DNA of 64,000 bases from assembly GCA_034007295.1 (NCBI GenBank), contig JAVERC010000002.1:82256-146255 (forward strand), read 5' to 3'. The translations under genes were made by a program, and so were the position numbers. This stretch comes from Desulforegulaceae bacterium (GTDB lineage Bacteria > Desulfobacterota > Desulfobacteria > Desulfobacterales > JACKCP01). A model generated the notes under the pieces. The model saw only the letters and a list, made by a program, of their open reading frames with translations. It was not told the DNA's origin and searched no databases. Each line of letters opens with the position of its first letter. The stretch's first letter is position 1. This document shows, in pieces, positions 82 to 51,822 of the stretch.

Positions 82-226
82 TAGTTGCTGAACGAAAATG
101 GCCTTTTTTGTCCATTATTAAGTCAGATTCAAAATTTAATCCTCAAAATACTAAATGTATCCTAAAGGTTAAATTTTTCATCTTCCTTGAACTGAACAAA
201 AAATTCTCATTTTCGGCCAATCACTA
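82..226 (+). repeat. Family-A self-complementary intergenic repeat, full-length copy A1
   Basis: TAGTTGCTGAACGAAAATGGCCTTTTTTGTCC...TTTTCGGCCAATCACTA. Hand alignment gives 13 differences from the copy at 37893-38036. The left arm aligns with the reverse complement of the right arm. Confidence 0.85.
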
Positions 227-286
227 CCTAAATTGAGGGGGTCATATTTTAAAATCAATAAATTTTCAATGATTAAGCTTATTATA
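227..286 (+). repeat. Module-B repeat, copy B1, abutting the right end of A1
   Basis: CCTAAATTGAGGGGGTCATATTTTAAAATCAATAAATTTTCAATGATTAAGCTTATTATA. Related sequences are at 3195-3256 (reverse complement), 12860-12913 and 52580-52619. Confidence 0.7.
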
Positions 287-302
287 TTTTAAATTAAATA
301 AA

Positions 303-779
303 TCAGGTATTTTTTCTTCTAAAATCGCCACTTTTACCGCCTGTTTTTTCCAAAAGCATAGTATTTTTTATTATCATTTCTTTATCATAAGCCTTGCACA
401 TATCATAAATTGCAAGTGCGGCAAGTGAGGCTCCTGTCAATGCCTCCATTTCAGCTCCGGTTTTATCATCTGCACTGATTTTGCAAAAAATTTCTATAAA
501 TGTTTCGTTTATAACAAAATCAAATTCAATGCCTGTAATTTTTATGGGGTGGCAAAGGAAAATAAGATCAGATGTTTTTTTTGCACCTGCAATTCCAGTA
601 AGTTTTGCTGTCTCAATTACATTGCCTTTTGCTGTATTATTTGACTCAATAAGATTTATTGTTTCTTTTTTTGTGTGAATTTCTGATTTAGCAATTGCTG
701 TTCTTTTTGTGGGAATTTTATCTGATATATTTACCATATGAACTCTTCCCTTAGAATCAAGATGAGTGAATCCCTTCAA
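303..779 (-). CDS. moaC: cyclic pyranopterin monophosphate synthase MoaC
   Basis: 158-aa ORF of typical MoaC length with MoaC-type motifs (HMVNISDK, GAEMEALTGASLAALAIYDMCKA). Confidence 0.9.
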   Translation of the reverse strand: MKGFTHLDSKGRVHMVNISDKIPTKRTAIAKSEIHTKKETINLIESNNTAKGNVIETAKLTGIAGAKKTSDLIFLCHPIKITGIEFDFVINETFIEIFCKISADDKTGAEMEALTGASLAALAIYDMCKAYDKEMIIKNTMLLEKTGGKSGDFRRKNT

Positions 780-837
780 TTTTTTTCCTGCCTTTATTTA
801 AAAATGATTTGTAATAATTGTCTTATTTTTATCTATT

Positions 838-924
838 TAGTTGCTGAACGAAAACGGCCTTTTTTGTCCATTCTTAAGTCAGAATCAAAATTTAATCCTC
901 AAAATACTATTGGGGCAATCACTA
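838..924 (+). repeat. Family-A repeat, short form A2 (left arm plus right terminus only)
   Basis: TAGTTGCTGAACGAAAACGGCCTTTTTTGTCCATTCTTAAGTCAGAATCAAAATTTAATCCTCAAAATACT is joined directly to ATTGGGGCAATCACTA. The central and right-arm portion is missing. Confidence 0.8.
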
Positions 925-980
925 TAAATACTATAAATAAATTTAAAATGAAAAACTTCTGACTTTGGTTTAATCTTGAA

Positions 981-1343
981 TTATTCATTGAGATTTTGCT
1001 TTTTTTTAACTGCTTTTTCTTTTATTTCATTAAGTGTCTTTGACATGGCATAAATTGTATTTTCTCTTATGTCACCAGCAATAGCAATGTGCATTATCTC
1101 ATCTCCAATGTTAAGGGTTGCTTTTTCATGCATATAAAACTTAATATCAATAATACCAGGCAGTTTTTTGTTTGAATTTACAATATTTTCAATAAGAGAA
1201 AAGTCAGGTTCAATATCAAGAGTTTTAATTTTTTTCCCGTCCCTTGATGAGTTTCTTACAATTCCTGTGTGCGTAAGAATCATGCCTGCATTTGATATTT
1301 CTGGATTTTTTTTAAGTTCTTCAATGAGATCATTAATTTTCAT
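981..1343 (-). CDS. MoaE-family protein (molybdopterin synthase catalytic subunit-like)
   Basis: 120 aa. GMILTHTGIVRNSSRDG and the C-terminal GDEIMHIAIAGDIRENTIYA...EIKEKAVKKK align by eye with the MoaE pattern (G.v.tF.G.VRn ... Gd.iv.v.v..hR..af ... K...p.wK.E). It lies next to moaC and is shorter than E. coli MoaE. Confidence 0.6.
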   Translation of the reverse strand: MKINDLIEELKKNPEISNAGMILTHTGIVRNSSRDGKKIKTLDIEPDFSLIENIVNSNKKLPGIIDIKFYMHEKATLNIGDEIMHIAIAGDIRENTIYAMSKTLNEIKEKAVKKKQNLNE

Positions 1344-1506
1344 TTTTTCTCCACTAAGAAAATAGTTTTGTAAATTTTTTTAAAAAACTTAGCATAAATT
1401 TTTCTTGCTGAATATTAGTATAGTTTGTATATTAATTCAAAAAAATTATTTTTCTTTCAGTCACTCCAGATATCTCTAAAATAATATTTAACCTTAGGAA
1501 TCTTTT

Positions 1507-1932
1507 ATGTCGGATTTAAATTTGAACTTGTCTCAAAATGAAAGAATGAGAAGAGAAGATTTTTTTGTTGAAAGGCTGAAGCTCCTTATGGTTATGTGCA
1601 GAGCTTTTATTAAAGGTTATCCCATGGAAGGTTTCAGGCGTGAAGCAGTTTTAAAAAATGCTGAACATGTTTTTTTTGAAACTGCAGACTGGGGTGGCCA
1701 ATATCTAAATGTCAGAGAAAAAGCAATGTATATAAATGGAATTAAGCCTGACAGCTATTTTTATCAGCGTGTAAAGCTTCTTGCACTTATGGCTAAAAGT
1801 TTTGCACAGGGTAATCCGGCAGGATATTTCAGGGTTAAGGCAGTTGAGGATACAATCAATGAAATAGAAAGCACTCTTAAGCTTGACTATGATGAAGATG
1901 TACTGGAAATGAGTTTTTTCAATGTAGCCTGA
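1507..1932 (+). CDS. hypothetical protein with an internal ~40-aa tandem duplication
   Basis: 141-aa ORF. Segment DFFVERLKLLMVMCRAFIKGYPMEGFRREAVLKNAEHV repeats as SYFYQRVKLLALMAKSFAQGNPAGYFRVKAVEDTINEI. I recognise no family. Confidence 0.5.
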   Translation: MSDLNLNLSQNERMRREDFFVERLKLLMVMCRAFIKGYPMEGFRREAVLKNAEHVFFETADWGGQYLNVREKAMYINGIKPDSYFYQRVKLLALMAKSFAQGNPAGYFRVKAVEDTINEIESTLKLDYDEDVLEMSFFNVA

Positions 1933-1947
1933 TGGAGATAATTTTTT

Positions 1948-2316
1948 ATGGAAAATGTGAAAATAATGGTTGTTGAGAACAATCATATGGTCAACTCTCT
2001 TATCAAAGATGTAATGATGTTTTGTGTTAACAGAGATATAATGTCGTTTTTTAATGATGATGATGCAATAAATTATATGCAAAGGTCTGGAGTTGTCCCT
2101 GATCTTGTAATTTCAAGATTTAAGGACGAAGGTGTAAGTGCAGGTAAAATTGCAGGTTATGTAAAGGAAAAAAATAAGAAATCTGTTTTTGTTTTTTCAT
2201 CAGATATTGAAAATGACAAAAATCTTGCAGTAAATGAAGGTGCAGACGCTTTTTTGCAGATCCCTTTTTCAATTTCAGATCTTTTCAAAATAGTTGATGA
2301 TTTTGTTGTTGATTAG
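1948..2316 (+). CDS. degenerate (pseudo-)receiver domain protein
   Basis: 122 aa with CheY-like spacing. The acidic pair is EN (VVENN), the phospho-acceptor position is Arg (DLVISRF) and the conserved Lys is Ile (LQIPF). Confidence 0.6.
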   Translation: MENVKIMVVENNHMVNSLIKDVMMFCVNRDIMSFFNDDDAINYMQRSGVVPDLVISRFKDEGVSAGKIAGYVKEKNKKSVFVFSSDIENDKNLAVNEGADAFLQIPFSISDLFKIVDDFVVD

Positions 2317-2460
2317 CTTTTTTTATTTTCCGGAGAATATTTCTTGTTCGATTATAGATGGAAAATTTAAACTTTAAAATACTTGTTGCTATGTGGCCGA
2401 AAAACTGTTTTTTAAAATTTTAAGAACAGTTTTTTTATAAAGTTAGATTCTTTCAAATTT

Positions 2461-2862
2461 GTGATTAAACAAAATATGAAGTTCTATCCTTTTTTTTTAA
2501 AAACTCCGGTAAATTCTAATAAAAAAATTAGGCTTTTATTTTATTTCTTAATTTTTCTTAATTTTTTTTCATGTACAAATAAACCAGAATTAAATTATTC
2601 TGCTTCTATTGTAATTAATGGCAGAAAAGTGAAAATGACTTTATATGGTCCATATTATGATGCAATTGACCAGTGGGATGAAATTGAATTTGTTTTAAAT
2701 AAAATTTCACAAAACCACTCTGTAAAAAAAATACTTATTCGTTTAGCTCCACTGAAAAATTCAGAAAAAGAAAATTATTTTTCTGAATATTGTCTTAGAA
2801 AAGTAATAAAATATTTTAAAGAAAAAAATATTGTATATGAAATAAAAGATGAAAGAATGTAA
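2461..2862 (+). CDS. hypothetical small lipoprotein
   Basis: 133-aa ORF (GTG start; in-frame ATG at 2476). A hydrophobic stretch LLFYFLIFLNFFSC ends in a lipobox-like Cys. No recognisable family. Confidence 0.45.
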   Translation: MIKQNMKFYPFFLKTPVNSNKKIRLLFYFLIFLNFFSCTNKPELNYSASIVINGRKVKMTLYGPYYDAIDQWDEIEFVLNKISQNHSVKKILIRLAPLKNSEKENYFSEYCLRKVIKYFKEKNIVYEIKDERM

Positions 2863-3051: not shown

Positions 3052-3196
3052 TAGTTGTTGATCGAAAGCGGTCTTTTTTGTCTATTTCTGCGTCAGATTC
3101 AAAATTTAATCCTCAAAATACTCAATGTTCTTCTGCGGTTAAATTTTTTATCTTGCTTGAACTGAACAAAAAATTTTAGTTTTCGGCCAATCACTA
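3052..3196 (+). repeat. Family-A repeat, full-length copy A3
   Basis: TAGTTGTTGATCGAAAGCGGTCTTTTTTGTCTATTTCTGCGTCAGATTCAAAATTTAATCCTCAAAATACTCAATG...GAACTGAACAAAAAATTTTAGTTTTCGGCCAATCACTA. Confidence 0.85.
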
Positions 3197-3256
3197 TAAT
3201 AAGCTAAATTAATTGAAAATTTATTGATTTAAATAAGATAAAATGCTCAATTCAGG
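3195..3256 (-). repeat. Module-B repeat, copy B2, inverted relative to B1
   Basis: The plus strand reads TATAATAAGCTAAATTAATTGAAAATTTATTGATTTAAATAAGATAAAATGCTCAATTCAGG. Its reverse complement matches B1, and it overlaps the A3 terminus by 2 nt. Confidence 0.7.
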
Positions 3257-3355
3257 TCGCAATTAGTTTACCAAACTTGATAATGGCTTAATTTAGGATT
3301 AAAATAAATTTTATGTAAATACCATAGCTCCAGGATTTTTGTATAGAGGGTTGAG

Positions 3356-3430
3356 TAGTGATTGAGCGAAAACTAAGAATTTTGTTTCAGTTTAAGGCAT
3401 ACAAAAAAAATAGTTTTAGTTCAGCAACTA
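3356..3430 (-). repeat. Family-A repeat, short form A4 (both termini, centre deleted)
   Basis: The plus strand reads TAGTGATTGAGCGAAAACTAAGAATTTTGTTTCAGTT...TAGTTTTAGTTCAGCAACTA. It ends 11 nt before the receiver ORF. Confidence 0.75.
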
Positions 3431-3441: not shown

Positions 3442-3861
3442 TTGACAATGAAAATGAATAAGACAGTTTTTTTTGTAGACGATGAAAAAAATGTTTTAAA
3501 TTCAATTAAAAGGCTGTTTAGAAATTCAGATCTTGATATTTTTATTTTTCAGGACCCTTTTGATGTTTTTAAGGCTTCAAGTGAAAATAATCCTGCTGTA
3601 GTTGTTTCAGATTATAGAATGCCTGAAATGAGCGGAGTAGAGCTTCTTGAAAAAATTAGCGTTTTGTTTCCTTCAAGTATAAGAATTATTTTGTCAGCTT
3701 TTACAGATATTGCCATAACTGAAGCTGCAATAAATAAATCTACAGTGAATCTTTTTATTTCTAAGCCTTGGGATGAGGAAGAGTTATTAACTGAAGTAGC
3801 TAATGCAGTAAAGTTATATAATTCTCCAAAGGATAAAAAATCAGGATATGGTTTTTTTTAA
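3442..3861 (+). CDS. single-domain response regulator (receiver)
   Basis: 139 aa with a canonical receiver signature: FVDDE, VVSDYRMPEMSG, ILSAF, ISKPW. The track start is TTG; in-frame ATGs are at 3448 and 3454. Confidence 0.85.
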   Translation: MTMKMNKTVFFVDDEKNVLNSIKRLFRNSDLDIFIFQDPFDVFKASSENNPAVVVSDYRMPEMSGVELLEKISVLFPSSIRIILSAFTDIAITEAAINKSTVNLFISKPWDEEELLTEVANAVKLYNSPKDKKSGYGFF

Positions 3862-3879
3862 GCCATAAAAAGGATTTCT

Positions 3880-4197
3880 ATGGGGTTTAAAACAGATTTT
3901 AAAGATAATGAACTTGTTTTGTGTTTAACAGGTGAATTTACAATCTATGATGTCAGTCAGGCAAAAAAAGAAATTTTAAAATATATAAATAATATTTCTC
4001 GGGTAAAGATAAAATCAGACGAACTCATAAGGGCTGATACAGCAGGTATTCAGCTTGTTATATCCCTTGTTAAGACTTGTATCAAAAATGACATTGAAAT
4101 TATAATGAAAAAAAATTCAAAAATTTTTGAATTTGCATCGTTTCCTGGAAATAATCTCAAAACTTTTTTGTATGAAAGAGTAAAGGATCATGCCTGA
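3880..4197 (+). CDS. STAS domain protein (anti-sigma-factor-antagonist-like)
   Basis: 105 aa with the STAS pattern: L.LTGEFTIYDV...IRADTAGIQLVISL, with Thr at the usual phospho-Ser position. Its end overlaps the cheY start by 8 nt. Confidence 0.7.
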   Translation: MGFKTDFKDNELVLCLTGEFTIYDVSQAKKEILKYINNISRVKIKSDELIRADTAGIQLVISLVKTCIKNDIEIIMKKNSKIFEFASFPGNNLKTFLYERVKDHA

Positions 4198-4570
4198 TAA
4201 GATACTTATTGTAGATGACTCCCCAAGTACTCTCATGCTTATGAAATTTTCTCTGGAAAAAAAAGGATATAATGTGGAAAAAGCACAAAATGCAGAGGAA
4301 GCACTTGAAATAATAGGTGAAAATTCAGATATTGTTTGTCTGATTACAGATATAAATATGCCTGGAATGAGTGGGATTGAGCTTGTAGAAAAAGTTAGGA
4401 AAAATCTTTATTGTAAATTTATGCCTGTAATAGTTTTGACTAATCCAGATAGTCCTGAAAATATAAAAAAAGCAAGAAGTGCCGGAGCAACAGGCTGGCT
4501 TGATAAGCCTTTTAAGCCCGAAGATCTGGTCAAAGTTATAGAAAAAATAAGGAAAAGGCCAGGGAAGTGA
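4190..4570 (+). CDS. cheY: CheY-like response regulator
   Basis: 126 aa: IVDDS, LITDINMPGMSG, VLTN, GATGWLDKPF. All conserved receiver residues are present. Confidence 0.9.
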   Translation: MPDKILIVDDSPSTLMLMKFSLEKKGYNVEKAQNAEEALEIIGENSDIVCLITDINMPGMSGIELVEKVRKNLYCKFMPVIVLTNPDSPENIKKARSAGATGWLDKPFKPEDLVKVIEKIRKRPGK

Positions 4571-6519
4571 ATAGTGGTGAAGGTATAAAAGATACTTTTT
4601 TTGAAGAATCAAGATTTCTTGTTTCGGAAATGGAGTCCCTTGCTCTTGATCTAGAATCTGAACCTGAAAATAAAAGTATTGCTGAGTCTTTATTCAGAGC
4701 AGTTCATACAATAAAGGGAAGCAGCGGAATGTTTGGATTTGAAAATGCTGCTGAGCTTGGTCATTTGCTTGAAAATATAATTACTTTAATCAGGGAAGGG
4801 CATTTAAAGTCTGATAATCGTATAACGGACTTATTTCTTGAATGTGCAGATGAGTTTAAAGTACTTTTTGAAAATAAAGATATTGAAGGCCAAAAATCTC
4901 AAAATTTAAAAGAAAAAATTTTATTTTTATCTGACTTAGCAAACAGCAATAATAAGTCTGGAGAAAAAAATAAACTCAATGAATATAGAATTTTTTTCAG
5001 GCCAATGGAAAAAATTTTTGAAATAGGACTTGATCCTTACACAAATATTGAAGAATTGATTGAATCAGGTGAGTGTGCAATTGAATGCGATACAGCAAAT
5101 GTTCCTGACCTTTTTGAAATTAATCCTGAAAAGTGCTATCTTTCATTTGACATAAAAATTAAAACAAAGCTTTCTGTAAAAGAAATAAAAGATATTTTTC
5201 TTTTTGTTGAAGATGACAGCGAAATAATAATTGAAGAAATCCTTCCTGAGCTGCCTGAAAAAACAGAAGATATTTCTGATAAACTCAAAAAATACATAGG
5301 CAAAAAAGACAGCAGCATAGTTATCTCCACCAAAAAACTAGATGACATGGTAAATCTTGTAGGCGAACTTGTAATGAATCAGTCAAGACTTTACAGGGAA
5401 ATGCTTTTACGTCCAAATGACCCGCTTAAGGTGCTTGCCGAATCAATGGATGAATGTGTCCATGAGTTAAGATCTTCAGTTCTTGACTTGAGAATGACTC
5501 CAATTGGAACAAAATTCAGTCATTTCAGAAGACTTGTAAGGGATTTGTCAGCATCATTGAATAAAAAAGTGGAACTTTATACTTATGGTGAAGATACTGA
5601 ACTTGATAAAAGCATAATAGAAAAAATCTGGGATCCCTTTGTTCATCTGATAAGAAACAGTATAGACCATGGAATAGAAAGCCCTGAAGACAGAATAAAA
5701 AAGGGCAAGTCAGAAACAGGAAGAATAGTGATTTCAGCAAGAACAAAAGAATCAAAAGTTGAAATTTCAATATCAGATGACGGAAAAGGACTAGACGAAG
5801 ATTTTATATTAAATGAAGCAGTAAAAAGGGGTTTTGCTGAAAAGACACAAAATATTTCCAAAAAAAATATACTTGATTTTATTTTTATTCCTGGATTTTC
5901 AACTGCTGAAAAAGTCAGCGGTATTTCAGGAAGAGGAATAGGCATGGATGCAGTAAAAAAGAAAATAGAAGAAGTCAATGGTGAAATAAGAGTTGATTCT
6001 TTAAAAGGCTGCGGTACCACAATTACTATACTTCTTCCTTTAACCCTTGCAATAGTAGATGTATTAATGTTTGAAACAGGGAATATGTGTTTTGCTGTTC
6101 CTTTATCCCATATTGAAGAATGCTTTGATTTTTCTAGATTTAGAATAGAAGGGAAAAGAAAAAGAAATCTTTTAAAACTTAGGGATGAATTTATTCCATA
6201 TTTTAAAATTTCAGATATTTATGATCTTCAAGAAAATACAGATGAAAATTTATGGCAGGTGATTTTGGTTAACCATGGAAGCAGAAAGGCTGGTTTTGTG
6301 GTTGAACGGCTTTTAAGGGCTCAGCAGGCTGTTATAAAATCAATCAGAAACTGGTATGGAAGAGATGATGGGATTACAGGTGCTGCTGTGCTTTATGATG
6401 GAAGTCTTGCCTATGTGATTGATGTAGTAAGGCTTTTAAGTATTTTTACTGGAAATAAAGATATTGAATTGGTTTCAGGTGCAATTGTCGAAAATTCTCT
6501 TAAGATTGGGCAGGCTTGA
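4567..6519 (+). CDS. cheA: chemotaxis histidine kinase CheA
   Basis: 650 aa. It has the HPt motif FRAVHTIKGSSGMFGF, a dimerisation region, an HATPase domain (HLIRNSIDHGIE, DDGKGL, GRGIGMD) and a C-terminal CheW-like domain. The GTG start overlaps the cheY stop. Confidence 0.92.
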   Translation: MNSGEGIKDTFFEESRFLVSEMESLALDLESEPENKSIAESLFRAVHTIKGSSGMFGFENAAELGHLLENIITLIREGHLKSDNRITDLFLECADEFKVLFENKDIEGQKSQNLKEKILFLSDLANSNNKSGEKNKLNEYRIFFRPMEKIFEIGLDPYTNIEELIESGECAIECDTANVPDLFEINPEKCYLSFDIKIKTKLSVKEIKDIFLFVEDDSEIIIEEILPELPEKTEDISDKLKKYIGKKDSSIVISTKKLDDMVNLVGELVMNQSRLYREMLLRPNDPLKVLAESMDECVHELRSSVLDLRMTPIGTKFSHFRRLVRDLSASLNKKVELYTYGEDTELDKSIIEKIWDPFVHLIRNSIDHGIESPEDRIKKGKSETGRIVISARTKESKVEISISDDGKGLDEDFILNEAVKRGFAEKTQNISKKNILDFIFIPGFSTAEKVSGISGRGIGMDAVKKKIEEVNGEIRVDSLKGCGTTITILLPLTLAIVDVLMFETGNMCFAVPLSHIEECFDFSRFRIEGKRKRNLLKLRDEFIPYFKISDIYDLQENTDENLWQVILVNHGSRKAGFVVERLLRAQQAVIKSIRNWYGRDDGITGAAVLYDGSLAYVIDVVRLLSIFTGNKDIELVSGAIVENSLKIGQA

Positions 6520-6537
6520 ATTGTTAGGTGCTAAAAC

Positions 6538-6674
6538 TATTGATTGGGCAAAACAAAGATTTTGTTTAAGTTATATATGACAATTAAACCTTTGTAAAAT
6601 TTAAATATTTTGAGGATTAAATTTTGAATCTGACGCAGAAATGGGCAAAAAAGGCCGTTTTTGTTCAGCAACTA
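6538..6674 (-). repeat. Family-A repeat, near full-length copy A5, between cheA and mcp
   Basis: The plus strand reads TATTGATTGGGCAAAACAAAG...TATTTTGAGGATTAAATTTTGAATCTGACGCAGAAATGGGCAAAAAAGGCCGTTTTTGTTCAGCAACTA. It starts 18 nt after the cheA stop. Confidence 0.85.
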
Positions 6675-6736
6675 GGTATTTTTGATCTGCAGCTTAGCTT
6701 AACTTGGTTAACCCGTCAAATTTGGAGATTTATGAT

Positions 6737-8536
6737 ATGTTAGGCTGGAAAAATGTTAAGATTTTATCTAAAACTTATATAGTTTTTTTTGTTTTTTCTG
6801 TTTTGTTTATTGGTTTTATCAGCTGGTGTATTTGGAATTTAAATCAAATTGTTTTAGTTGATAAAAAAAATATTTATGTGACAAATTTGATTACACGGCT
6901 TGATAATAATGAAGTTTTTCTTGTTGAACTTATAAAAGATCAGTCTGAATATCTCAATGATCAGGCTGATTTTACAGAATCTCCTTTTGATACAAATGAA
7001 ATAAGACTTAGAGAAGTTTTTTCAGAAGAGCTCAAAAGATCAATCCTTGAACTAATACCTTTTCAAAAACTCGCAGTAAAAGAGCTTGATGACAAGTATA
7101 ATATACTTATTAATGATCTTGAAAGAGTCAGTTTAAATTCTGTTGATGGAAGATATTTTGATAATAAGATTGATTTTTTTAATTTTTTTAATTTAAGAGT
7201 TCTTTCAGATTTGGAATCTATTTTAAAAGCTCAGTCTTTATTAAAAAAATATATTAAGGAAGAAGTTATTTTGTCAGATAAAATGGTTGAAACTGTAAAT
7301 TCTTTAAAATTTAAAACAATTTCAGCTGGAATGGTTTTTCTTTGCATTGCTTTATTTACAATTATTTTTTTTGTTGGAATATTAAGAAAAAAAATGGAGA
7401 TATTAATATCTGCATCAAATGAGTTTTCTATGGGTAAATTTGACAAAAAAATTGAGTTTACCAGCATGGATGAATTAGGACTTCTAGCAAACGCTTTAAA
7501 TTCTATTTGTGAAAATTTTAAATATATTTCAGGAACTGCAGAAAGAATCTCAAATGGTGATTTAAGATATGAATTTCTTAATGAAGATGAAAATGACCCT
7601 GTTAAGCAAGCTCTTAAAATTATGTATGAGAAACTCCATGAAATAATTCTAAAGGCAAGAATGATTTCATGTCAGGTTAAAACAGGCAGTACAAGTCTTT
7701 ATTCAATAGCCGATGAAATATCTACTGGAGCAGCTCAGCAGGCAGCTGCAGCAGAAGAAAGCAGTTCATCTATGGAACAAATGTCTGCTACTCTAAAGCA
7801 AAATGCGGTCAATGCAGAAGAAACAGTAAAAATAGCAAATGATATGGTTGAAGCTTCTGAAGACAGCGGAAAATTTGTAGAACAGACTGTTATAGATATG
7901 AAAAATATTGCTGAAAAAATTGAAGTAGTTGAAGATATAGCTAGGCAGACAAATCTTCTTGCACTCAATGCAGCAATTGAGGCGGCAAGGGCAGGAGAAT
8001 ACGGAAAGGGATTTGCTGTTGTTGCAAAAGAAGTTAAAAATCTTGCTGAAAAAAGCCACAAGGCGGCTCTTGAGATTGCTGAAGTTGCAAATGACAGTGT
8101 TGAAAGAGCTGATAGAACAAATAGTGTTACAATGGATGCACTAAATAAAATTAAAAGAACAGCTGAGCTTGTTGAGGAAATTTCAATTACAACAGCAGAG
8201 CAAAGTGATGCTGTAAACCATACTGCTGAAGCAATTACACATTTAGATCAAATTATTCAAAAAAATGCAGAAGTATCTGAAGAAATGGCTTTCTATGCAA
8301 AAGAACTTTCAGAATACTCAGTAAAATTAGGTGAGGTTGTAGATTTTTTTATTATAAACAATGAAGGCAAGCTATGTCCAAATTGTTTTGAAAGTAAAGA
8401 AGCTGAGTATCAAAATCCTTTTGAAAAAGATATTGAAAGTACAAACGATGCTCATTTTGACAAAAATACAAGTAATCATGTCAAAACGGTTTACAAAGGG
8501 AATGATTTTTTAGACGATGATTTTATTAAATTTTAG
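6737..8536 (+). CDS. methyl-accepting chemotaxis protein
   Basis: Two hydrophobic segments, a HAMP-like region, and the signalling hairpin [34 protein letters not shown] prefer the ATG at 6737 (GGAG 9 nt upstream). The ORF track starts at TTG 6704. Confidence 0.88.
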
Positions 8537-8548
8537 AAGGCTTTTTTT

Positions 8549-9010
8549 ATGGGTAAAACACAATCTAAAGAGTATTTGATATTTCAGCTTATGGATGAAA
8601 AATTTGCTGTTTTGTCAGAAAAGACCCTTGAAATTGTCCAGTCAAAAAGAATAACAAAGTTGCCTAAAATGCCTGATTTTTTTTTGGGTATTATGAATTT
8701 GAGGGGGAATCTTTTCCCAGCTGTTGACTTAAGGCTGATTTTTAATATGCCCTATCAGGAAGATACCAAAGAAACTGTTTTTATTGTTGTATCTGTAAAT
8801 AAAGATGAGCCCTCATATGAAGCAGCATTTAGAGTTGATAAAGTATGTGAAGTTGAAACTATTTCAAATTTAAAAATAATGCCCTATCCTGAATCTGGTT
8901 CTCTTATCCCTGAAAAATATCTTTTTGGATCTTTTCATTATAAAGATCAGGTCGTTCTTATTCTTTCTCCTGATGTGCTTTTTTCAAGGCAGGAGCTCGG
9001 GCTTGCTTAA
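8549..9010 (+). CDS. cheW: chemotaxis coupling protein CheW
   Basis: 153 aa, single CheW domain (EYLIFQLMDEKFAV...LGIMNLRGNLFPAVDLR). Confidence 0.9.
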   Translation: MGKTQSKEYLIFQLMDEKFAVLSEKTLEIVQSKRITKLPKMPDFFLGIMNLRGNLFPAVDLRLIFNMPYQEDTKETVFIVVSVNKDEPSYEAAFRVDKVCEVETISNLKIMPYPESGSLIPEKYLFGSFHYKDQVVLILSPDVLFSRQELGLA

Positions 9011-9030
9011 AAATATGTAAGAACAGTATT

Positions 9031-9176
9031 TAGTAATTGGCCGAAAATGGGGATTTTTTGTTCATTCCAATGAAGATGAAAAATTTAACCTTTAGGATAC
9101 ATGGAGTATTTTGAGAATTAAATTTTGAATCTGACGTCGAAATGGGGAAAAAAGACCGTTTTTAGTTCAGCAACTA
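9031..9176 (-). repeat. Family-A repeat, full-length copy A6, between cheW and the second cheY
   Basis: The plus strand reads TAGTAATTGGCCGAAAATGGGGATTTTTTGTTCATTCCAATGAAGATGAAAAATTTAACCTTTAGGATACATGGAGTATTTTGAGAATTAAATTTTGAATCTGACG...TTTTTAGTTCAGCAACTA. Confidence 0.88.
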
Positions 9177-9219
9177 TATTAGAAATTTTTTTTGAATAAT
9201 AAAAAATTGGATTTAAACC

Positions 9220-9603
9220 ATGAACTCATCCATGAAAAAAATTTTGTTTGCTGATGATTCTCCTTCGATGAGGCTTTTTGCTTCTCTTAGTCTTTCAGAT
9301 GAATTTGAAATTGATACTGCCTGTGATGGAGAAGATGCTTTAAAATATTTGAAAACAAAAGATTATGATCTTTTTCTTGTTGATGTATATATGCCTAAAA
9401 TTGACGGCATAAGTCTTGTAAAAAAAATAAGAGAATTTGAAAATTCAAGGTTTAAACCCATAATAATTATAAGCACAGAAGCAGATGAAAGTTTATTTTC
9501 AAAGGGACGGGATGCAGGTGCAACAGGCTGGATTGTAAAGCCCTTTGACAAAGATTACCTTTTAAAAGCTGTTAAGCATATTCTTTTTGGTAAAGGCAGA
9601 TGA
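9220..9603 (+). CDS. cheY: CheY-like response regulator
   Basis: 127 aa: FADDS, FLVDVYMPKIDG, IISTE, GATGWIVKPF. Confidence 0.9.
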   Translation: MNSSMKKILFADDSPSMRLFASLSLSDEFEIDTACDGEDALKYLKTKDYDLFLVDVYMPKIDGISLVKKIREFENSRFKPIIIISTEADESLFSKGRDAGATGWIVKPFDKDYLLKAVKHILFGKGR

Positions 9604-9607
9604 ACTG

Positions 9608-10465
9608 ATGAAAAATATTTTAACCGATGATTTTTTGATTGATGAAATAAAAAACAGATTTACTGAAAAAAATAATCAAATTTTACAATTAAGTTTTGAG
9701 CTTGATGAACTGAGGAAAAAATTATTTGATTCTGAGCATTTAAAGACAAAGTTTTTGTCTATTATTAGAAATGAACTTAAAAACCCTGTTTCTGCAATTT
9801 CTGGCCTTTCAAAACTTGTTGTGCAAAAAGATTTTGATTCTGTAGAAGATATAAAAAAGATAATGGACACAATTAGGCTTGAAGCTGTCAAATTTGCTTT
9901 GCAGCTTGATAATGTCTTAATAGCCTCATCCTATGAAGGAGGCGATAATAATTTGTTTTTATCAGGCTTTGATCTTTGTGAGCTGATTTATGAAGTGAAA
10001 AGATCTTTTGAAGATGAGATAAAATCAAGACAAAAAATAGTTGAAACACAAATGGATCATGAAATTAAAATATATGCAGACAGGGAAAAATTAAAACTTG
10101 TTTTCAAAAATTTTTTGGATAATGCATTAAAGTTCTCTGAAAAAAATATAAAAATTATTGTATTAAAGCGAAAAAATAGTGCAGTGGTTTCTTTTTATAA
10201 TGACGGGTATGAAATTGAAGAAAAAAATCATCATAGAATTTTTGAAAGATTTTCACCTCTTGATTCAGGTCTTTCGAGAAAATATAGCGGTGTAGGGCTT
10301 GGTTTGTGTGTGTGTGGTGCAATAATTGAAAGCCATGGCGGAAAAACAGATTTTTCTTCAGGACAAGGCAGTGGTACTCTTTTTGAAATAGAACTTCCTT
10401 TGGATGATAAAAGTCAGGGGGAAGCTGATGATATTGAATCCGGCGAAGGATTTATAATACTTTGA
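9608..10465 (+). CDS. histidine-kinase-like protein with a degenerate H-box (His replaced by Asn)
   Basis: Cytoplasmic: coiled-coil, DHp-like and HATPase domains (NFLDNALKFS, NDGYEI, GVGLGLCVCGAIIESHGG). The H-box reads FLSIIRNELKNPVSAISG, where SHELRTP is expected. I prefer the ATG at 9608; the track start is TTG 9587. Confidence 0.75.
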   Translation: MKNILTDDFLIDEIKNRFTEKNNQILQLSFELDELRKKLFDSEHLKTKFLSIIRNELKNPVSAISGLSKLVVQKDFDSVEDIKKIMDTIRLEAVKFALQLDNVLIASSYEGGDNNLFLSGFDLCELIYEVKRSFEDEIKSRQKIVETQMDHEIKIYADREKLKLVFKNFLDNALKFSEKNIKIIVLKRKNSAVVSFYNDGYEIEEKNHHRIFERFSPLDSGLSRKYSGVGLGLCVCGAIIESHGGKTDFSSGQGSGTLFEIELPLDDKSQGEADDIESGEGFIIL

Positions 10466-10917
10466 CTGATAGAATAAGAATTTATTTAAAAACCGGAGGA
10501 ATAGTTTTTTCCAAGGAAGCCTCTGAGATCAAAACAATACTTGGCTCCTGTGTAAGTGTGTGTCTATGGGATTTTAAATATAAGGCAGGCGGAATGAATC
10601 ATTTTATTTTCCCAACGTGGACAGGCAGGGGGCTTGCAACTCCCAAATATGGCAATGTTGCAATGGAATTTCTTTATGAAAAAATGATTTCAAACGGATC
10701 AAAGCCAGAAGACTTAATTGCAAAAGTTTTTGGGGGTGGGAAAATTTTTGCATCACTTGATATATCACTAAATCCTGGCCGTCAAAATATTTTAAGTGCC
10801 AAAAAATTTCTGGAAAAGGTCAATATCCCGGTTATAGCAGAAGATACAGGTGGAACAAGAGGACGTACTGTTATTTTTCATACAGACACAGGAGATGTAT
10901 TTGTTAAAAAAAATTGA
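10462..10917 (+). CDS. cheD: chemoreceptor glutamine deamidase CheD
   Basis: 151 aa with the CheD pattern ILGSCVSVCLWD...GGMNHFIFP. The TTG start overlaps the upstream stop. Confidence 0.85.
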   Translation: MTDRIRIYLKTGGIVFSKEASEIKTILGSCVSVCLWDFKYKAGGMNHFIFPTWTGRGLATPKYGNVAMEFLYEKMISNGSKPEDLIAKVFGGGKIFASLDISLNPGRQNILSAKKFLEKVNIPVIAEDTGGTRGRTVIFHTDTGDVFVKKN

Positions 10918-12732: not shown

Positions 12733-12859
12733 TAGCGGCTGAATAAAAACGGTCTTTTTTGTCATTTTCTGCGTCATATCCAAAATTTAATTTTCAAAAA
12801 CCTCTTTAGGTAATTTAAAGGCTCAATTTTTCATATTGTGTAATTAAAAATAAATTTTA
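12733..12859 (+). repeat. Family-A repeat, diverged copy A7 lacking the right terminus
   Basis: TAGCGGCTGAATAAAAACGGTCTTTTTTGTCATTTTCTGCGTCATATCCAAAATTTAATTTTCAAAAAC...AAAGGCTCAATTTTTCATATTG. It starts 10 nt after the cmk stop. Confidence 0.7.
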
Positions 12860-12913
12860 CCTGAATTAGCGTTTCATATTTTTAAATTAATAAATTTCCA
12901 ATGAATTTTGCTT
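12860..12913 (+). repeat. Module-B repeat, copy B3
   Basis: CCTGAATTAGCGTTTCATATTTTTAAATTAATAAATTTCCAATGAATTTTGCTT, in the same orientation relative to A as B1. Confidence 0.65.
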
Positions 12914-12957
12914 GTTTGATGACAATTTATTGAAAACATAAAAGTATTTGTTTTTTC

Positions 12958-13049: not shown

Positions 13050-14795
13050 ATGGCAAACGAAAATTTAGATGTTCAGGACAAATTTGAAGGTGTAGAAACA
13101 ATGGAACAGCTTCTTGATCTCTATGAAGACAGCTTCAGCAGATTTCAGGAAGGTGAAGTGGTAACCGGAAGGGTTATCTCTATCGGCAAGGATTCTGTAA
13201 TCGTTGATATCGGATACAAATCTGAGGGTGCAGTACCTGCTGAAGAATTCAAGGACGAAAACGGCGAGATCACAGTCAAAAAAGGCGACAAGATTGAAGT
13301 AATGATCGAGTTCTGGGATGAGGATGAAGAAGAAGTTGTCCTTTCCAAGGAAAAAGCCGAGAAGCAGAAAGTCTGGGATGAAATTGCAGAAATCCATGAA
13401 AAGGACGGAATTGTTGAAGGTATCATCATTAACAGAGTTAAAGGCGGTTTCTCTGTTGATATCGGAGTACAGGCATTCCTTCCTGGTTCACAGGCTGATC
13501 TTCGTCCGATCAAGAACATGGACGTAATGGTAGGCAAGAAATTCAAGTTCAAGGTTCTTAAATTCAACAAACGCAGAAGCAATATCGTTCTTTCAAGAAG
13601 AGTGATTCTTGAATCCATGAGACAGGAACAGAGATCTGCTACTCTTGAAGAACTGGAAATCGGAAGAGTAATGACCGGTACAGTCAAGAATATTACTGAA
13701 TACGGTGTATTTATCGATCTTGGCGGTGTTGATGGTCTTTTACATATTACAGATATTTCCTGGGGAAGAGTCAAGCATCCTTCTGAGCTTTTTGCTCTTG
13801 GCGATGAAATTGAAGTTAAAATCCTTTCATACGATCTTGAGAAGGAAAGAGTTTCTCTTGGTATGAAGCAGCTTACTCCTGATCCATGGGAAACTGCTGC
13901 ACAGCAGTATCCTGTAGGAAGCAAAGTTAAGGGAAGAGTTGTAAGTCTTACAGATTACGGTGCCTTTGTTGAGCTTGAAGAAGGTATTGAAGGTCTTATC
14001 CATGTTTCAGAAATGTCATGGACTAAAAAAGTTAAGCATCCTTCCAAAATGGTTTCTGTTGGTGAAGAAGTTGAGGCAGTTGTTCTTGACCTTAAACCTG
14101 AAAGCCGCAGAATTTCTCTTGGAATGAAGCAGGTAGAGCCAAATCCATGGGATCTTATAAGCGACAAGTATCCTGTTGGAACAATCATTGAAGGCAAAAT
14201 CAAAAATATTACAGATTTTGGTCTTTTTATTGGAATTGAAGATGATATTGACGGTCTTGTTCATATTTCCGATATTTCATGGACAAAGAGAATCAAGCAT
14301 CCAGGTGAAGTATATAAAAAAGGTGATACTGTTCAGGCAGTTGTTCTTGATATTGACAAGGAAAATGAAAGATTCTCTCTTGGAATCAAGCAGACTCAGC
14401 CTGATCCATGGGAAAGTGCACCAGAAACCTATAAAGTAGGTTCAAAGATCAGCGGTAAAATAACAAATATTACAGATTTTGGTATTTTTGTTGAACTTGA
14501 AGAAGGTGTTGAAGGTCTTGTTCACATTTCAGAAGTTGAAAATGAGAAAAAAGATCTTTCCAAGGAATATCAGATTGGTTCAGACCTTGAAGCAAAGGTT
14601 ATGAACGTAAATACAGAAGAAAGAAGAATCGGTCTTTCTGTAAAGCGTCTTGGAATGGATGATGACGAGGCCATACTTAAAGATTACATGAAGAAAATTG
14701 AAGATGTTCCTCCAACTTCTGCTTTTGGTGAAATGCTCAAGGAAAACATAGAAGAGAAAATCAAGGAAAAAGAAGAAGCTAGAAGTAAACAATAA
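13050..14795 (+). CDS. rpsA: 30S ribosomal protein S1
   Basis: Six S1 repeats (GxV...DxGxxGLxHISE motifs recur). I prefer the ATG at 13050 (MANENLD), with AGGGAGA upstream. The track ORF extends to 12990, inside the predicted promoter/leader. Confidence 0.93.
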   Translation: MANENLDVQDKFEGVETMEQLLDLYEDSFSRFQEGEVVTGRVISIGKDSVIVDIGYKSEGAVPAEEFKDENGEITVKKGDKIEVMIEFWDEDEEEVVLSKEKAEKQKVWDEIAEIHEKDGIVEGIIINRVKGGFSVDIGVQAFLPGSQADLRPIKNMDVMVGKKFKFKVLKFNKRRSNIVLSRRVILESMRQEQRSATLEELEIGRVMTGTVKNITEYGVFIDLGGVDGLLHITDISWGRVKHPSELFALGDEIEVKILSYDLEKERVSLGMKQLTPDPWETAAQQYPVGSKVKGRVVSLTDYGAFVELEEGIEGLIHVSEMSWTKKVKHPSKMVSVGEEVEAVVLDLKPESRRISLGMKQVEPNPWDLISDKYPVGTIIEGKIKNITDFGLFIGIEDDIDGLVHISDISWTKRIKHPGEVYKKGDTVQAVVLDIDKENERFSLGIKQTQPDPWESAPETYKVGSKISGKITNITDFGIFVELEEGVEGLVHISEVENEKKDLSKEYQIGSDLEAKVMNVNTEERRIGLSVKRLGMDDDEAILKDYMKKIEDVPPTSAFGEMLKENIEEKIKEKEEARSKQ

Positions 14796-14858: not shown

Positions 14859-14900
14859 AATGATTGGATCGGTAAAGGTTTATTAATAAAAAAACTTTGA

Positions 14901-14991
14901 GATTCAAATTCAAAGTTTAGTCTTTAAGAGTTTTATTGTTTTTAAGGTTTAAATTTTGAATCTGATTTAAGAACAATCAAAACATTTTTCG
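14901..14991 (-). repeat. degenerate relic of the family-A core
   Basis: AAGGTTTAAATTTTGAATCTGATTTAAGAACAATCAAAACATTTTTCG resembles the reverse complement of the family-A left arm. An opposing GATTCAAATTCAAAG lies at 14901. Confidence 0.4.
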
Positions 14992-15017
14992 ATTATCAGG
15001 CAAGGAGATATTTAAAC

Positions 15018-37892: not shown

Positions 37893-38036
37893 TAGTTGCT
37901 GAACGAAAACGGCCTTTTTTGTCCATTTTTAAGTTAGATTCAAAATTTAATTCTCAAAATGCTCAATGTATCCTAAAGGTTAAATTTTTCATCTTCCTTG
38001 AACTGAACAAAAAATTTTGTTTTCAGCTAATTGCTA
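37893..38036 (+). repeat. Family-A repeat, full-length copy A9
   Basis: It starts 1 nt after the prmC stop: TAGTTGCTGAACGAAAACGGCCTTTTTTGTCCATTTTTAAGTTAGATTCAAAATTTAATTCTCAAAATGCTCAATGTATCCTAAAGGTTAAATTTTTCATCTTCCTTGAACTGAACAAAAAATTTTGTTTTCAGCTAATTGCTA. Confidence 0.88.
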
Positions 38037-49049: not shown

Positions 49050-49069
49050 GGCGGATTTAAATATCCGCC
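49050..49069. terminator. hairpin between convergent purQ and the helicase gene
   Basis: GGCGGAT TTAAAT ATCCGCC. There is no clear U-tract on either strand. Confidence 0.35.
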
Positions 49070-49099
49070 AAATAACAAATCTTTGGTTCCAAGACAGAT

Positions 49100-50359
49100 T
49101 TAACTAGATTTAGGTTTGATTTTTCTATTGGATCTTTTTTTGCCTCGGTTTTTTATCCAATCCTCATTTGCATTTATCATATCATGGATATCCTGATGAC
49201 TGTCAGATACTTCGACTGTGAAAGAATAATCGCTTTTGCTGATTTTTATTTTTTCTATAGGCTTAGTGATAAAGTTTTCTATTTCTTTGAGTAGATTTAT
49301 TTCACCTGAACTGCAAAATGATATTGCAGAACCTTTTGAACGACCTCTTCCAGTTCGGCCAACCCGATGAACATAAACTTCCTTTTGATCAGGCAAATCG
49401 TAATTGATCACATAATCCACATTTGGTATGTCAATACCTCTTGCGGAAACATCTGTTGCTATAAGGATATTTTGAGCTCCACTCTTAAATGCATTCATTA
49501 CGGCAAGCCTATGGTCTTGATCTTTTTTTCCATGTATAGTCAAAGAGCTTATTTGTGCACGTTCCAATGATTTTGCAACACGGTCTGCCCTTATTGTTGT
49601 TCTCACAAAAACTATAATTTTTGAATCCTTGTGGTCACGGATAAAACTTCTCAGAAAAAAACGCTTATCATCCATTTCCACATCAATCACATAATGTGAG
49701 ATATTTTTGGACACAGGGTCATTTGGTGAAATCTGTATTCTTATGGCACTGGATTTTACCTGTGAAAAGGCAAGTTTTTTTATTTCTTTATTGATGGTGG
49801 CGGAAAAAAACAGAGTCTGGTGACGCTGTTTCAAATGCCGTTTTATTGATTGAATGTCGTAAATAAAGCCTCGGTCAAGCATCTGGTCTGCTTCGTCTAA
49901 AACCAGAATCCGGACATTGCTTGCATCAATGGCCTTTTGGGATATTAGATCAAACATCCGGCCAGGGGTGGCAATAAGAATGTCTACTCCAGTTTGTAGC
50001 TTGTTTATTTGGCTTTCCTGCTCTACTCCTCCGTAAACTCCAAGTGTAATTACCTTGGTATTTTTGCAAAGAGATGAAAAAACTCCATGAATCTGAGCAG
50101 CAAGCTCTCTTGTCGGTACCATGACAATGGCATATATTCCCTTTTGTCTTCGAGTTGTTTTTGCCTGAATTATCATGTGGATTACAGGAATAGCAAAGGC
50201 AAGTGTTTTTCCTGTTCCAGTCTGTGCAATGGCCATTACATCCTCTCCCTTTAAAATGGAAGGGATCGCCTTGAATTGAATGTCTGTAGGACGTTTCAGC
50301 CCCTGCTCAGCAAGGTTTTTTTTCAAAATATCGCTGATGTGATAGTTTTCAAATATCAT
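49100..50359 (-). CDS. DEAD-box ATP-dependent RNA helicase
   Basis: 419 aa: AQTGTGKT, PTRELA, DEAD, SAT, HRVGRTGR, with a basic C-terminal tail. Confidence 0.92.
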   Translation of the reverse strand: MIFENYHISDILKKNLAEQGLKRPTDIQFKAIPSILKGEDVMAIAQTGTGKTLAFAIPVIHMIIQAKTTRRQKGIYAIVMVPTRELAAQIHGVFSSLCKNTKVITLGVYGGVEQESQINKLQTGVDILIATPGRMFDLISQKAIDASNVRILVLDEADQMLDRGFIYDIQSIKRHLKQRHQTLFFSATINKEIKKLAFSQVKSSAIRIQISPNDPVSKNISHYVIDVEMDDKRFFLRSFIRDHKDSKIIVFVRTTIRADRVAKSLERAQISSLTIHGKKDQDHRLAVMNAFKSGAQNILIATDVSARGIDIPNVDYVINYDLPDQKEVYVHRVGRTGRGRSKGSAISFCSSGEINLLKEIENFITKPIEKIKISKSDYSFTVEVSDSHQDIHDMINANEDWIKNRGKKRSNRKIKPKSS

Positions 50360-50734
50360 TAATTATCTTTCATATTATGTGTGTTAATTAAATATTGATG
50401 TAGTTATTATGTCCTGACTAGTTGTAAATTGAACCTAGATTAATAAGGCATTGCTTAGTCAGGTTATACATGCTTTTTACGAATAAACCTAACAACTTCA
50501 TGGAAAATTATTGTGAAAAAAGGATCAAGGCAAAATAAGCTTTTGAAATAATATTAGAAATGAATTTTTTAAATTTTTTTAGATATGCTGATTTATTTGA
50601 GCTGTGTTTTTTTATTTTTCATGGATAGTGATAGCAGGTTTTTGGCCAAAATTTATTAAGATTGTTGATCTTTGCGAAGATAAGTTGGTTTTTTTTGTAT
50701 GCTCTAGTTTGCCTAGAGCATATCATTTTAAAAA

Positions 50735-51691
50735 CTAAGAACTTACTATCCAAACTGCTTTGTTAAAAGCCATGTGAATCAGTTTTTCTCCAACTCTTCC
50801 AATTATAAAATCCTGGACTTTTGAAATGCCTTTTCTTCCAACCATAATTGTTCCCCAGTTGTTTTTTTCAGCTGTTTCATAAAGGCCAAGTGAACGGCTT
50901 ATATATGAGTCAATTGTTCCTGTGTCTGAGTTTTTTTTATCAAATCCAAGATGTTCAAGCTTTTCAACAGCTTTTTCAAGCTCAGGGTTAATCTTTGAAG
51001 TTCTCATTTTTTCTCTTTCATGTTCAATTGGCATTGAATCAGAATCAAGTGTTGTAAAAGTGAGATTATAATCTCCACTGATAAGATTTACAGATCTTGA
51101 AACATGTCTGATATGTATTTTTTTTGAGGAATCAACAAAAAGCTGGCCTGCTGTTTTAATGCATTCTTTTGCACCGTCAGATGCATCAAAGCCAATTAAA
51201 ATATTTTCAGTTTCAGGGTTTTCGCCAACAAGTATAAGTGTTGTTGAGTTAAGTTTTGAAATTAATTTGCCAGCAACAGAGCCAATTGGAATATTTTTTA
51301 GATTGGTAAGTCCTTTTCTTCCTGCAAATACAGCCTCATAGCCTTTAGAAGCTTCAGCAATTATATCTCTTGTTATTCCAATTTGCCTTGGCTGTGTTTT
51401 AATGTGAACTTTTTCTTCAGGGAAACCTTTATCAATGAATTGTTTTTTTACCTTTGAAAGCGTATTAGTAAAAATTTTATTATGCTTTGTAATCCAATCT
51501 TTCAAAGTTTCTTTTTTAAGAGTTTCATCCGGTATCTCATCAATATCCCAAAATGATTCAGGGATATCTGTGCCAACAAGAAAAATTACTATTTCAGATG
51601 TTTTTGACGGAAGAATTTTTGATGCATAGTCAACGGCATGAATTGAAGATGTTGAGCCGTCTACAGCAACAAGATATTTTTTATTATTCAT
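50735..51691 (-). CDS. tandem universal stress protein (two UspA domains)
   Basis: Two Usp repeats (YLVAVDGS...GRKG...GSV; ILIGFDAS...GRKG...GRV). I prefer the ATG at 51691, preceded by AGGAGG. The track start is 51709. Confidence 0.85.
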   Translation of the reverse strand: MNNKKYLVAVDGSTSSIHAVDYASKILPSKTSEIVIFLVGTDIPESFWDIDEIPDETLKKETLKDWITKHNKIFTNTLSKVKKQFIDKGFPEEKVHIKTQPRQIGITRDIIAEASKGYEAVFAGRKGLTNLKNIPIGSVAGKLISKLNSTTLILVGENPETENILIGFDASDGAKECIKTAGQLFVDSSKKIHIRHVSRSVNLISGDYNLTFTTLDSDSMPIEHEREKMRTSKINPELEKAVEKLEHLGFDKKNSDTGTIDSYISRSLGLYETAEKNNWGTIMVGRKGISKVQDFIIGRVGEKLIHMAFNKAVWIVSS

Positions 51692-51719
51692 TTTGCACCT
51701 CCTGTGCATTAATAATTAT

Positions 51720-51822
51720 TAGTAAATGAACGAAAACGTCTTTTTGGCTATTTCTACACTTGACTAAAAATTTAATTTTCAATTGTGCTGAAACAAAAAA
51801 ACTAGTCTTCGTCCAGTCACTA
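51720..51822 (+). repeat. Family-A repeat, short diverged copy A10, in the usp 5' region
   Basis: TAGTAAATGAACGAAAACGTCTTTTTGGCTATTTCTACACTTGACTAAAAATTTAATTTTCAA...GCTGAAACAAAAAAACTAGTCTTCGTCCAGTCACTA. Confidence 0.7.

Follow-up and report, generated by a model that had tools for sequence, protein, structure and literature searches.

A 64,000-nt stretch of DNA from a Desulforegulaceae bacterium (GenBank assembly GCA_034007295.1, contig JAVERC010000002.1, positions 82,256 to 146,255; hereafter, the window) contains a dispersed intergenic repeat, which we will term family A. We propose, with a probability of about 85%, that family A is a non-autonomous DNA transposon of ~145 bp, or in other words an A+T-rich MITE (miniature inverted-repeat transposable element). 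Read this way, it is a new MITE family whose target signature is mildly unusual and which comes from a narrow clade of uncultured Desulfobacterales. Bacterial MITEs are less than 200 bp long and A+T-rich; they have terminal inverted repeats (TIRs) that end in TA, are flanked by duplications of the target, and form long stem-loops as RNA (PMC2229807; PMC3184786), and the general description includes an intergenic location (PMC2229807; PMC3184786; PMC10969869). Family A has the size and the A+T-richness, TIRs, a flanking duplication, no internal gene, and dispersed copies with filled and empty sites. An initial annotation of the window had likened the repeat to MITEs, ERIC, and Correia-type elements; the likeness holds for the features just listed and extends to lineage-specific insertions and deletion derivatives.

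The initial annotation had pointed to ten strictly intergenic segments that share one sequence. Using BLASTN with a first consensus and nhmmer with a profile built on four full copies, we recovered all ten where they had been placed or a few bases off (for instance, 6542/6538-6674 and 12733-12858; E = 1e-42 to 1e-45 in nhmmer for the full copies). The two copies known as A1 (82-226) and A9 (37893-38036) differ at exactly 13 positions, as had been claimed. A repeat finder independently yielded the same families and inverted pairs, and a 20-mer from the left end matched the window seven times with at most three mismatches (0.00 matches expected, from 100 shuffles). In a multiple alignment, the copies form a single family, in which some are full-length and others are internally deleted or truncated: full copies are 143-146 bp, and derivatives are 40-103 bp. 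(The repeat finder also reported 261-bp periodic direct repeats at 13693-14534, but these are the S1 domains of rpsA and not a mobile or tandem repeat.)

Family A is bounded by imperfect TIRs of about 34 bp. The left end is TAGTTGCTGAACGAAAACGGCCTTTTTTGTCC and the right end, as its reverse complement, is TAGTGATTGGCCGAAAACGAGAATTTTTTGTTC; over the first ~34 nt, the two share TAGT, TG, CGAAAACG, TTTTTTGT, and C. (The ends can also be written as TAGTTGCTGAAC.../...CCAATCACTA, or as TAGTTGCTGAACGAAAA and, in reverse complement, TAGTGATTGGCCGAAAA.) At 145 bp, there is no room for a gene inside the element, and we take family A to be non-coding. Frame +3 of the consensus is open across all 47 codons; every copy seen is intergenic, and the open frame is probably due to chance among six frames. 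Copies decay through point mutations and through internal deletions, and the latter spare the ends. Forms of 75-103 bp in the window keep both tips, and two shorter derivatives elsewhere consist of little beyond the ends, with the flanking duplication still present. One is a 40-bp remnant (L031, 6648-6687) with flanks TTA-AT/.../AT-TAA. The other is a mini-element of 50 bp from end to end (L015, 4134-4183), which is inserted beside a full copy with a common duplicated TT.

To describe the target site, we compiled the flanks of 38 unique full-length copies. The elements begin and end with TA, as the initial annotation had said: the termini are TAGT...ACTA in 34-37 of the 38. On the left flank, there is a T at -4 in 34/38 copies and an A at -3 in 35/38; on the right flank, there is a T at +3 in 35/38 and an A at +4 in 34/38. 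Further out, positions -5 and +5 have weaker preferences for T and A, respectively. The site can thus be written as TA-NN-[TAGT...ACTA]-NN-TA. The dinucleotide NN is the same on both sides in 27/38 copies. When the right flanks were permuted, the mean number of matches was 6.6 and the maximum in 10,000 trials was 15, so the matching flanks represent a target-site duplication. The duplicated dinucleotide varies (AT, TT, CT, AG, CC, AA, and others). The initial annotation had raised the possibility of a TA target duplication, which needs a correction: TA is the tip of the element and the preferred target context, and the duplicated bases are the variable NN. One copy (L060:10086) has the flanks TG-AG/TAGT...ACTA/AG-GC, so it keeps its own TA tips in a target that lacks TA. 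This favors a 2-bp duplication with the TA belonging to the element, and the data fit a duplication of 2 bp at the center of a TA-NN-TA target.

The duplication also bears on a first alternative, which is that family A is a REP/REPIN-like palindrome that is spread by RAYT (an IS200/IS605-related tyrosine transposase) via single-stranded hairpin intermediates. On either strand, family A as a whole makes up a single long imperfect hairpin, it is strictly intergenic, and we found no DDE transposase (see below), all of which would be expected. But mobility of the REP/REPIN and IS200/IS605 type leaves no target duplication, and family A has one. Furthermore, a short G+C-rich stem-loop would be typical of REPs, while family A is A+T-rich and has a length of 145 bp, and there is no RAYT-like gene beside any copy examined. 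REPs also "do not display MITE signatures" (PMC3184786). We give this alternative almost no credence.

Family A is found at 64 places in all of the DNA that we fetched (nhmmer). We searched one genome per GTDB species for a 29-nt left-end pattern and found 22 loci, all in two metagenome-assembled genomes (MAGs): HK-STAS-DESU-1 (JACKCP01) and CA_2019_NHSR_17 (JBFWJK01), on more than 20 contigs together. (These loci were chosen by an exact match to the left end, which biases them towards young copies.) The flanks of the window are not matched by the flanks in these two MAGs, which implies that family A is present in at least three species. The carriers are uncultured Desulfobacterales MAGs that are labelled Desulfobacteraceae or Desulforegulaceae, and the nearest cultured relatives, Desulfobotulus and Desulfococcus, have only about 73% identity in RpsA. 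The window's DNA is also present, at 100% identity, in contig k141_775770 of ENA ERZ27247324 (found via RpsB), and a sister strain that is 97.5-98.4% identical to the window is in JGI metagenome 3300035545. Every copy in the window is intergenic. Across 56 classified places, none of the copies falls within a credible gene; the only apparent exception is a spurious 90-aa open reading frame (ORF) that spans the element. Copies lie in intergenic spacers only, often directly after stop codons or terminators.

The initial annotation had proposed comparing filled and empty orthologous sites. Four spacers that are filled in the window are empty in one of its relatives (L087). We fetched syntenic DNA via relatives of RpsA and compared spacers across L085 (which is HK-STAS-DESU-1, 77-94% identical to the window), L087/L088 (75-90% nucleotide identity), L026, and L027. 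The spacer between cheA and the gene for a methyl-accepting chemotaxis protein (MCP) is 184 nt and filled in the window, versus 35 nt in L087/L088. Similarly, the spacer between cheW and a response-regulator gene is 209 nt and filled in the window, versus 51 nt in L087/L088. (The che cluster is absent from L026 and L027.) The cmk-rpsA spacer is ~270 nt and filled in the window, versus 85 nt in L087/L088, 148 nt in L026, and 139 nt in L027. Finally, the rpsA-sppA spacer is 222 nt and filled in the window, versus 79, 82, and 86 nt, respectively. Taken together, the four spacers range over 184-273 nt in the window and over 35-85 nt in L087/L088. No family-A member was found in the 14-22 kb of L087/L088, L026, and L027.

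The rpsA-sppA spacer also shows what an old copy looks like. In the empty genomes (L026, L027, and L087), the ribosome-binding site of sppA comes directly after the rpsA terminator, while the window has ~130 extra nt whose ends still resemble both TIRs. The initial annotation had described a relic at 14901-14991. It does belong to family A, but its extent needs to be revised: it is a strongly diverged full-length copy on the minus strand, at ~14872-15004, between the rpsA terminator and sppA. (BLASTN and nhmmer alone place it around 14904-14999; its full extent is seen by comparison to the relatives without it.)

Some insertions are shared between the window and HK-STAS-DESU-1 and others are not. 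The rpsA-sppA relic is common to both, and the cheA-MCP spacer of HK-STAS-DESU-1 also holds a copy (L085, 3430-3566), oriented as in the window. In contrast, the copy between cheW and the response-regulator gene is found in the window's species only. The corresponding spacer of L085 is 103 nt and contains no copy; in the sister strain (L086), this copy has the canonical flanks TA-AA/.../AA-TA. Conversely, an intact copy at 11874-12015 of L085 has no counterpart in the window. In the cmk-rpsA spacer, the copy of HK-STAS-DESU-1 is in the opposite orientation to that of the window, which implies an independent insertion. Together, the shared and the lineage-specific sites imply insertion both before and after the divergence of the window's species and HK-STAS-DESU-1. 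The activity of family A predates, and continued beyond, the separation of at least two species of the clade. Also, a single consensus is matched at 92-98% identity by copies from different species, while the flanking genes are only 77-94% identical, as expected if the copies were stamped from a conserved source. As a side observation, the chemotaxis cluster (window 3442-10917: two CheY-like genes, a STAS-like gene, cheA, the MCP gene, cheW, the response regulator, a histidine kinase, and cheD) is absent at the syntenic position in L026 and L027 and present in L085, L086, and L087. This cluster has several copies of family A in the window and none in L087.

A related possibility is that family A is a fossil MITE: the transposase has been lost, and the copies are now immobile and are altered by recombination and decay only. 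Transposase loss is assumed for Correia or ERIC. Consistent with this idea, the DNA that we covered contains no partner insertion sequence (IS), and many of the window's copies are deleted or have diverged (74-90% identity to the consensus). Furthermore, both strains of the window's species (98.4% identical) have all insertion sites in common, with no polymorphism. However, copies are 95-98% identical to the consensus in each carrier species, and insertions differ between species, which implies that transposition continued after the split. Also, we covered less than ~10% of any carrier genome, so the absence of a transposase is not established. We take this possibility seriously, but we doubt it.

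If family A is a MITE, then a transposase encoded elsewhere would bind both of its ends. The element would have moved into intergenic A+T-rich sites, with the consensus (T)TA-NN-TA(A). The target would be cut with a 2-bp stagger, and repair would leave NN duplicated on each side. A copy that is co-transcribed with its neighbors would then form an RNA hairpin of ~70 bp, and any regulatory effect of this hairpin is hypothetical.

The hairpin potential itself is real. The left arm is 67% identical over 147 nt to the reverse complement of the right arm (E = 6e-11), and both strands of every full copy fold into a single long hairpin (z-scores of -2.8 to -8.6 relative to shuffled controls). For instance, the copy at 82-226 has predicted energies of -33 kcal/mol (plus strand) and -50 kcal/mol (minus strand). 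This agrees with the ~70-bp imperfect hairpin, on either strand, that the initial annotation had predicted from the self-complementary arms.

So, could family A be a selected cis-acting structure in RNA or DNA (such as an attenuator, a site for protein binding, or a hairpin for RNase III or mRNA stabilization) that is kept between genes for its function and is not selfish DNA that has spread? Some of the hairpins are strong (z down to -8.6), and several copies lie within operons (at moaC and in the che cluster) and would be co-transcribed. Between tandem genes, 21 copies are antisense and 10 are sense (with the element read from left to right), which favors the strand that gains G-U pairs. There is also a precedent in that Correia and ERIC alter transcripts via RNase III or RNase E (PMC10969869). 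However, both orientations occur, and the 21:10 skew is not significant (P of about 0.07, two-sided binomial test). Although the hairpin is present in each full copy, we found no covariation beyond shared descent. In an alignment of 29 copies, 91.0% of cells are paired versus 90.5% in column shuffles, the covariation score is unremarkable (70 of 500), and the covariation term from RNAalifold is near zero. Thus, the pairing is conserved by descent and not by covariation, and a selected RNA is unsupported. Nor do the copies behave as if they were maintained: orthologous spacers of close relatives lack the element, and copies decay freely. In particular, the prmC-rpsB copy changes faster than its flanks (window versus the 97.5%-identical sister strain); in the sister strain (L024 2640-2761 / L025), it has lost 22 nt of its left end and has several extra substitutions. 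There is no consistent promoter or terminator motif (two copies only have a weak 4-5-bp stem with a T-run), and Rfam has no match. A selected structure thus seems very unlikely as an explanation for the family. We conclude that the inverted ends give rise to the hairpin potential as a by-product, but some copies may have been exapted for a role.

Returning to the MITE proposal, several observations weigh against it. First, no autonomous partner was found. As the initial annotation had noted, there is no transposase in the 64-kb window, as judged from its ORFs and from the Pfam tables of syntenic loci (the ORFs from 57683 to the end were not scanned). About 16 ORFs beside copies or clusters of copies include no transposase, and the genes at the clusters in L003, L034, and L063 are ordinary. 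Across about 300 kb of MITE-bearing loci, there is no matching pair of ends that are 0.7-3 kb apart. We also scanned metagenomes with a degenerate end pattern and with positions that were required to differ from the interior of the MITE, which was meant to enrich for longer elements with the same ends. The 57 resulting loci included only indel-bearing MITE copies and chance matches. Second, the 2-bp duplication is read from flank statistics and is not formally separable from a 4-bp (ANNT) or 6-bp (TANNTA) duplication: all three predict the same empty site, TA-NN-TA. There is no clean, recent pair of filled and empty sites at single-base resolution, as the empty sites are from genomes that are 10-25% diverged. 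Third, mobility is read from sequence comparison and not from direct observation.

Some details of these searches are worth noting. In the metagenome scan, only the Ga0265295 loci, which are identical to HK-STAS-DESU-1, carry family A, and all of these are MITEs; the remaining loci are chance matches in unrelated, G+C-richer contigs. Four partial matches that we considered as IS ends (L009, L021, L015, and L031) are truncated or mini copies beside ordinary genes. An all-against-all BLAST of the loci revealed no other multi-copy segment of the size of an IS. Given that less than ~10% of any carrier genome was covered, the missing partner is weak evidence of absence. As for reconstructing an empty site to the base, the pairs L022/L034, L016/L019, and window/L085 either have diverged too far or fail to cover the junction.

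Family A was not recognized in any collection that we searched, in agreement with the initial annotation. Rfam 15 has no matches in the window at gathering thresholds, and copy A1 has only chance-level matches at E ≤ 1. Similarly, there was no BLASTN match of the consensus to 72,556 plasmids, a 60-nt end probe gave only a chance match in 5,426 E. coli genomes, the degenerate end pattern had no matches in viral contigs, and a full-text literature search for four 12-mers from the ends returned unrelated primers only. The largest recent census of MITEs is based on RefSeq and excluded most MAGs (PMC11602168), so family A is unlikely to have been catalogued.

Among the most similar known elements is Correia (also known as CREE or NEMIS) of Neisseria. 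Correia duplicates TA itself, while family A duplicates a variable dinucleotide between two TAs. The family-A consensus is presumably unlike that of Correia, judging by eye and without an alignment. Family A also lacks an IHF-like site (none with ≤1 mismatch to WATCAANNNNTTR) and a consistent promoter, which are further differences from Correia, and its hosts are from an unrelated phylum. Otherwise, the two have much in common. Correia is 100-155 bp and A+T-rich, with TIRs and with TA at the very ends; it is intergenic, often co-transcribed, and forms long hairpins; and it has full and internally deleted classes (PMC2229807; PMC10969869). It has over 100 intergenic copies, and no cognate transposase has been identified for it (PMC2229807; PMC10969869).

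ERIC (also known as IRU) and RU-1 are similar to family A in being imperfect palindromes (~127 bp) that are intergenic, are transcribed with their neighbors, and have TA termini, and the presence of ERIC varies between related species (PMC2229807). However, ERIC differs in its sequence and its host, and its effects on mRNA via RNase E are documented (PMC10969869). RUP from Streptococcus pneumoniae and Nezha from cyanobacteria resemble family A in that they are small, TIR-bounded, and non-autonomous, with filled and empty sites and A+T-rich targets that contain TA. Both share TIRs with a known IS (IS630-Spn1 and ISNpu3, respectively), whereas no partner is known for family A. Overall, family A resembles Correia, ERIC, and RUP in how it works but probably does not belong to any of these named families: its host is unrelated and its sequence is unrecognized, though no alignment was made.

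Which type of transposase might move family A? A MITE that is mobilized by IS630/Tc1-mariner (as for RUP, Nezha, or Stowaway) does not fit, because an exact TA duplication is required and the dinucleotide of family A varies. (We take the right end to resemble Tc1-type ends, CAGTGCTGGCCAAAAAG, but this is a lead only.) Family A is also not an integron attC site: by inspection, its ends are unlike RYYYAAC...GTTRRRY, and it occurs in both orientations between housekeeping genes. A closer parallel is IS30, which attacks the target strands 2 bp apart and gives variable 2-bp direct repeats at the center of near-palindromic hot spots (PMC9333248). This is the geometry of TA-NN-TA with NN duplicated, although the likeness is in mechanism and does not imply membership: no IS30-family gene or end sequence is linked to family A. 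Because of the variable 2-bp duplication in a near-palindromic A+T-rich site, an IS30-like transposase would be a reasonable candidate, by analogy.

A more ambitious idea is that the transposase has a target rule unlike that of the families usually associated with TA-ended bacterial MITEs (a 2-bp duplication of any dinucleotide that is framed by TA) and belongs to an undescribed branch of IS30 or IS630/Tc1 or to something new, and also that some copies have been co-opted as ~70-bp RNA hairpins within operons, as the 2:1 skew in orientation towards the better-folding strand hints. We think that this is improbable.

The main value of identifying family A is for annotation, as much of the "extra" intergenic DNA in this clade of uncultured Desulfobacterales can be put down to it. 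It is also a caution that the long hairpins in these spacers are transposon ends and not riboregulators. Filled and empty sites can serve as a marker for comparing strains and species. The TA-NN-TA target with its variable 2-bp duplication is a small curiosity that could point to a family of transposase. Family A does not open any long-standing question.

Within the window, which is A+T-rich (about 30-38% G+C), the copies of family A are as follows. The full-length, 145-bp copy at 82-226 (plus strand; nhmmer E = 1e-44) has the flanks attaCC/TAGT...ACTA/CCtaaa and hence a 2-bp duplication of CC. At 838-924 (plus strand), an internally deleted copy has element positions 1-72 fused to the last ~15 nt (838-909 and a terminal 15 nt in BLAST and nhmmer); its neighbors are moaC and, upstream, a molybdopterin-synthase-like gene on the minus strand. 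Another full-length copy is at 3052-3196 (plus strand; nhmmer E = 8e-43), with a family-B repeat (see below) adjoining its right end, and a short form of 75 bp with both termini kept is at 3356-3430 (minus strand). The che cluster contains a near-full copy whose right end is degenerate (6538-6674, minus strand, between cheA and the MCP gene) and a full-length copy (9031-9176, minus strand, between cheW and the response-regulator gene). A diverged copy with a truncated right end lies between cmk and rpsA at 12733-12859 (plus strand), with a family-B repeat directly after it, and is followed by the rpsA-sppA relic. The full-length copy at 37893-38036 (plus strand) begins 1 nt past the stop codon of prmC and is 244 nt upstream of rpsB, with a duplication of AG/AG. 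Last, a short diverged form of 103 bp (51720-51822, plus strand) occupies a divergent promoter region and lies 11 nt upstream of a gene with a Usp domain; its duplication is AT/AT.

Two more segments, both intergenic, have weak nhmmer matches to the family-A profile (1447-1540, E ~0.1; and 2336-2399, E ~0.03) and may be older relics. If both are real, then, in the window's first 15 kb, family A is present in almost every spacer longer than 100 nt. The genes of the window are ordinary housekeeping genes: moaC, the che cluster, cmk-rpsA-sppA, dnaE, rho-rpmE-prfA-prmC, rpsB-tsf-pyrH-frr-uppS-cdsA, purL, and xerC-hslVU.

We also noticed a second dispersed intergenic repeat, family B, which is ~63 nt and A+T-rich, with the consensus TACCTRARTTGAGCGTTTCATATTTTTAAATTAAKAAATTTTTAATGAATTAAGCTTATTATA. 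In the window, it is found at 226-286 (plus strand), 3195-3258 (minus strand), 12859-12919 (plus strand), and, weakly, 52580-52620 (plus strand). Elsewhere, it is found in L084 (4319-4380), L031 (4339-4400), L018 (6257-6317), L063 (2248-2289), L037 (185-225), and L050 (717-767). Family B does not form a hairpin (z > 0) and has no match in Rfam. At about five of its eleven places, family B has a copy of family A directly against one end, and such ends look like the target of family A. AAACCCTGCGGGCTTTTCAATTT comes after family B in four loci. Family B may be a module that resembles a promoter, or it may be a small mobile element in its own right.

Finally, CA_2019_NHSR_17 contains a thiamine pyrophosphate (TPP) riboswitch (RF00059, 82.7 bits; L018, 1718-1824), which is unrelated to family A.

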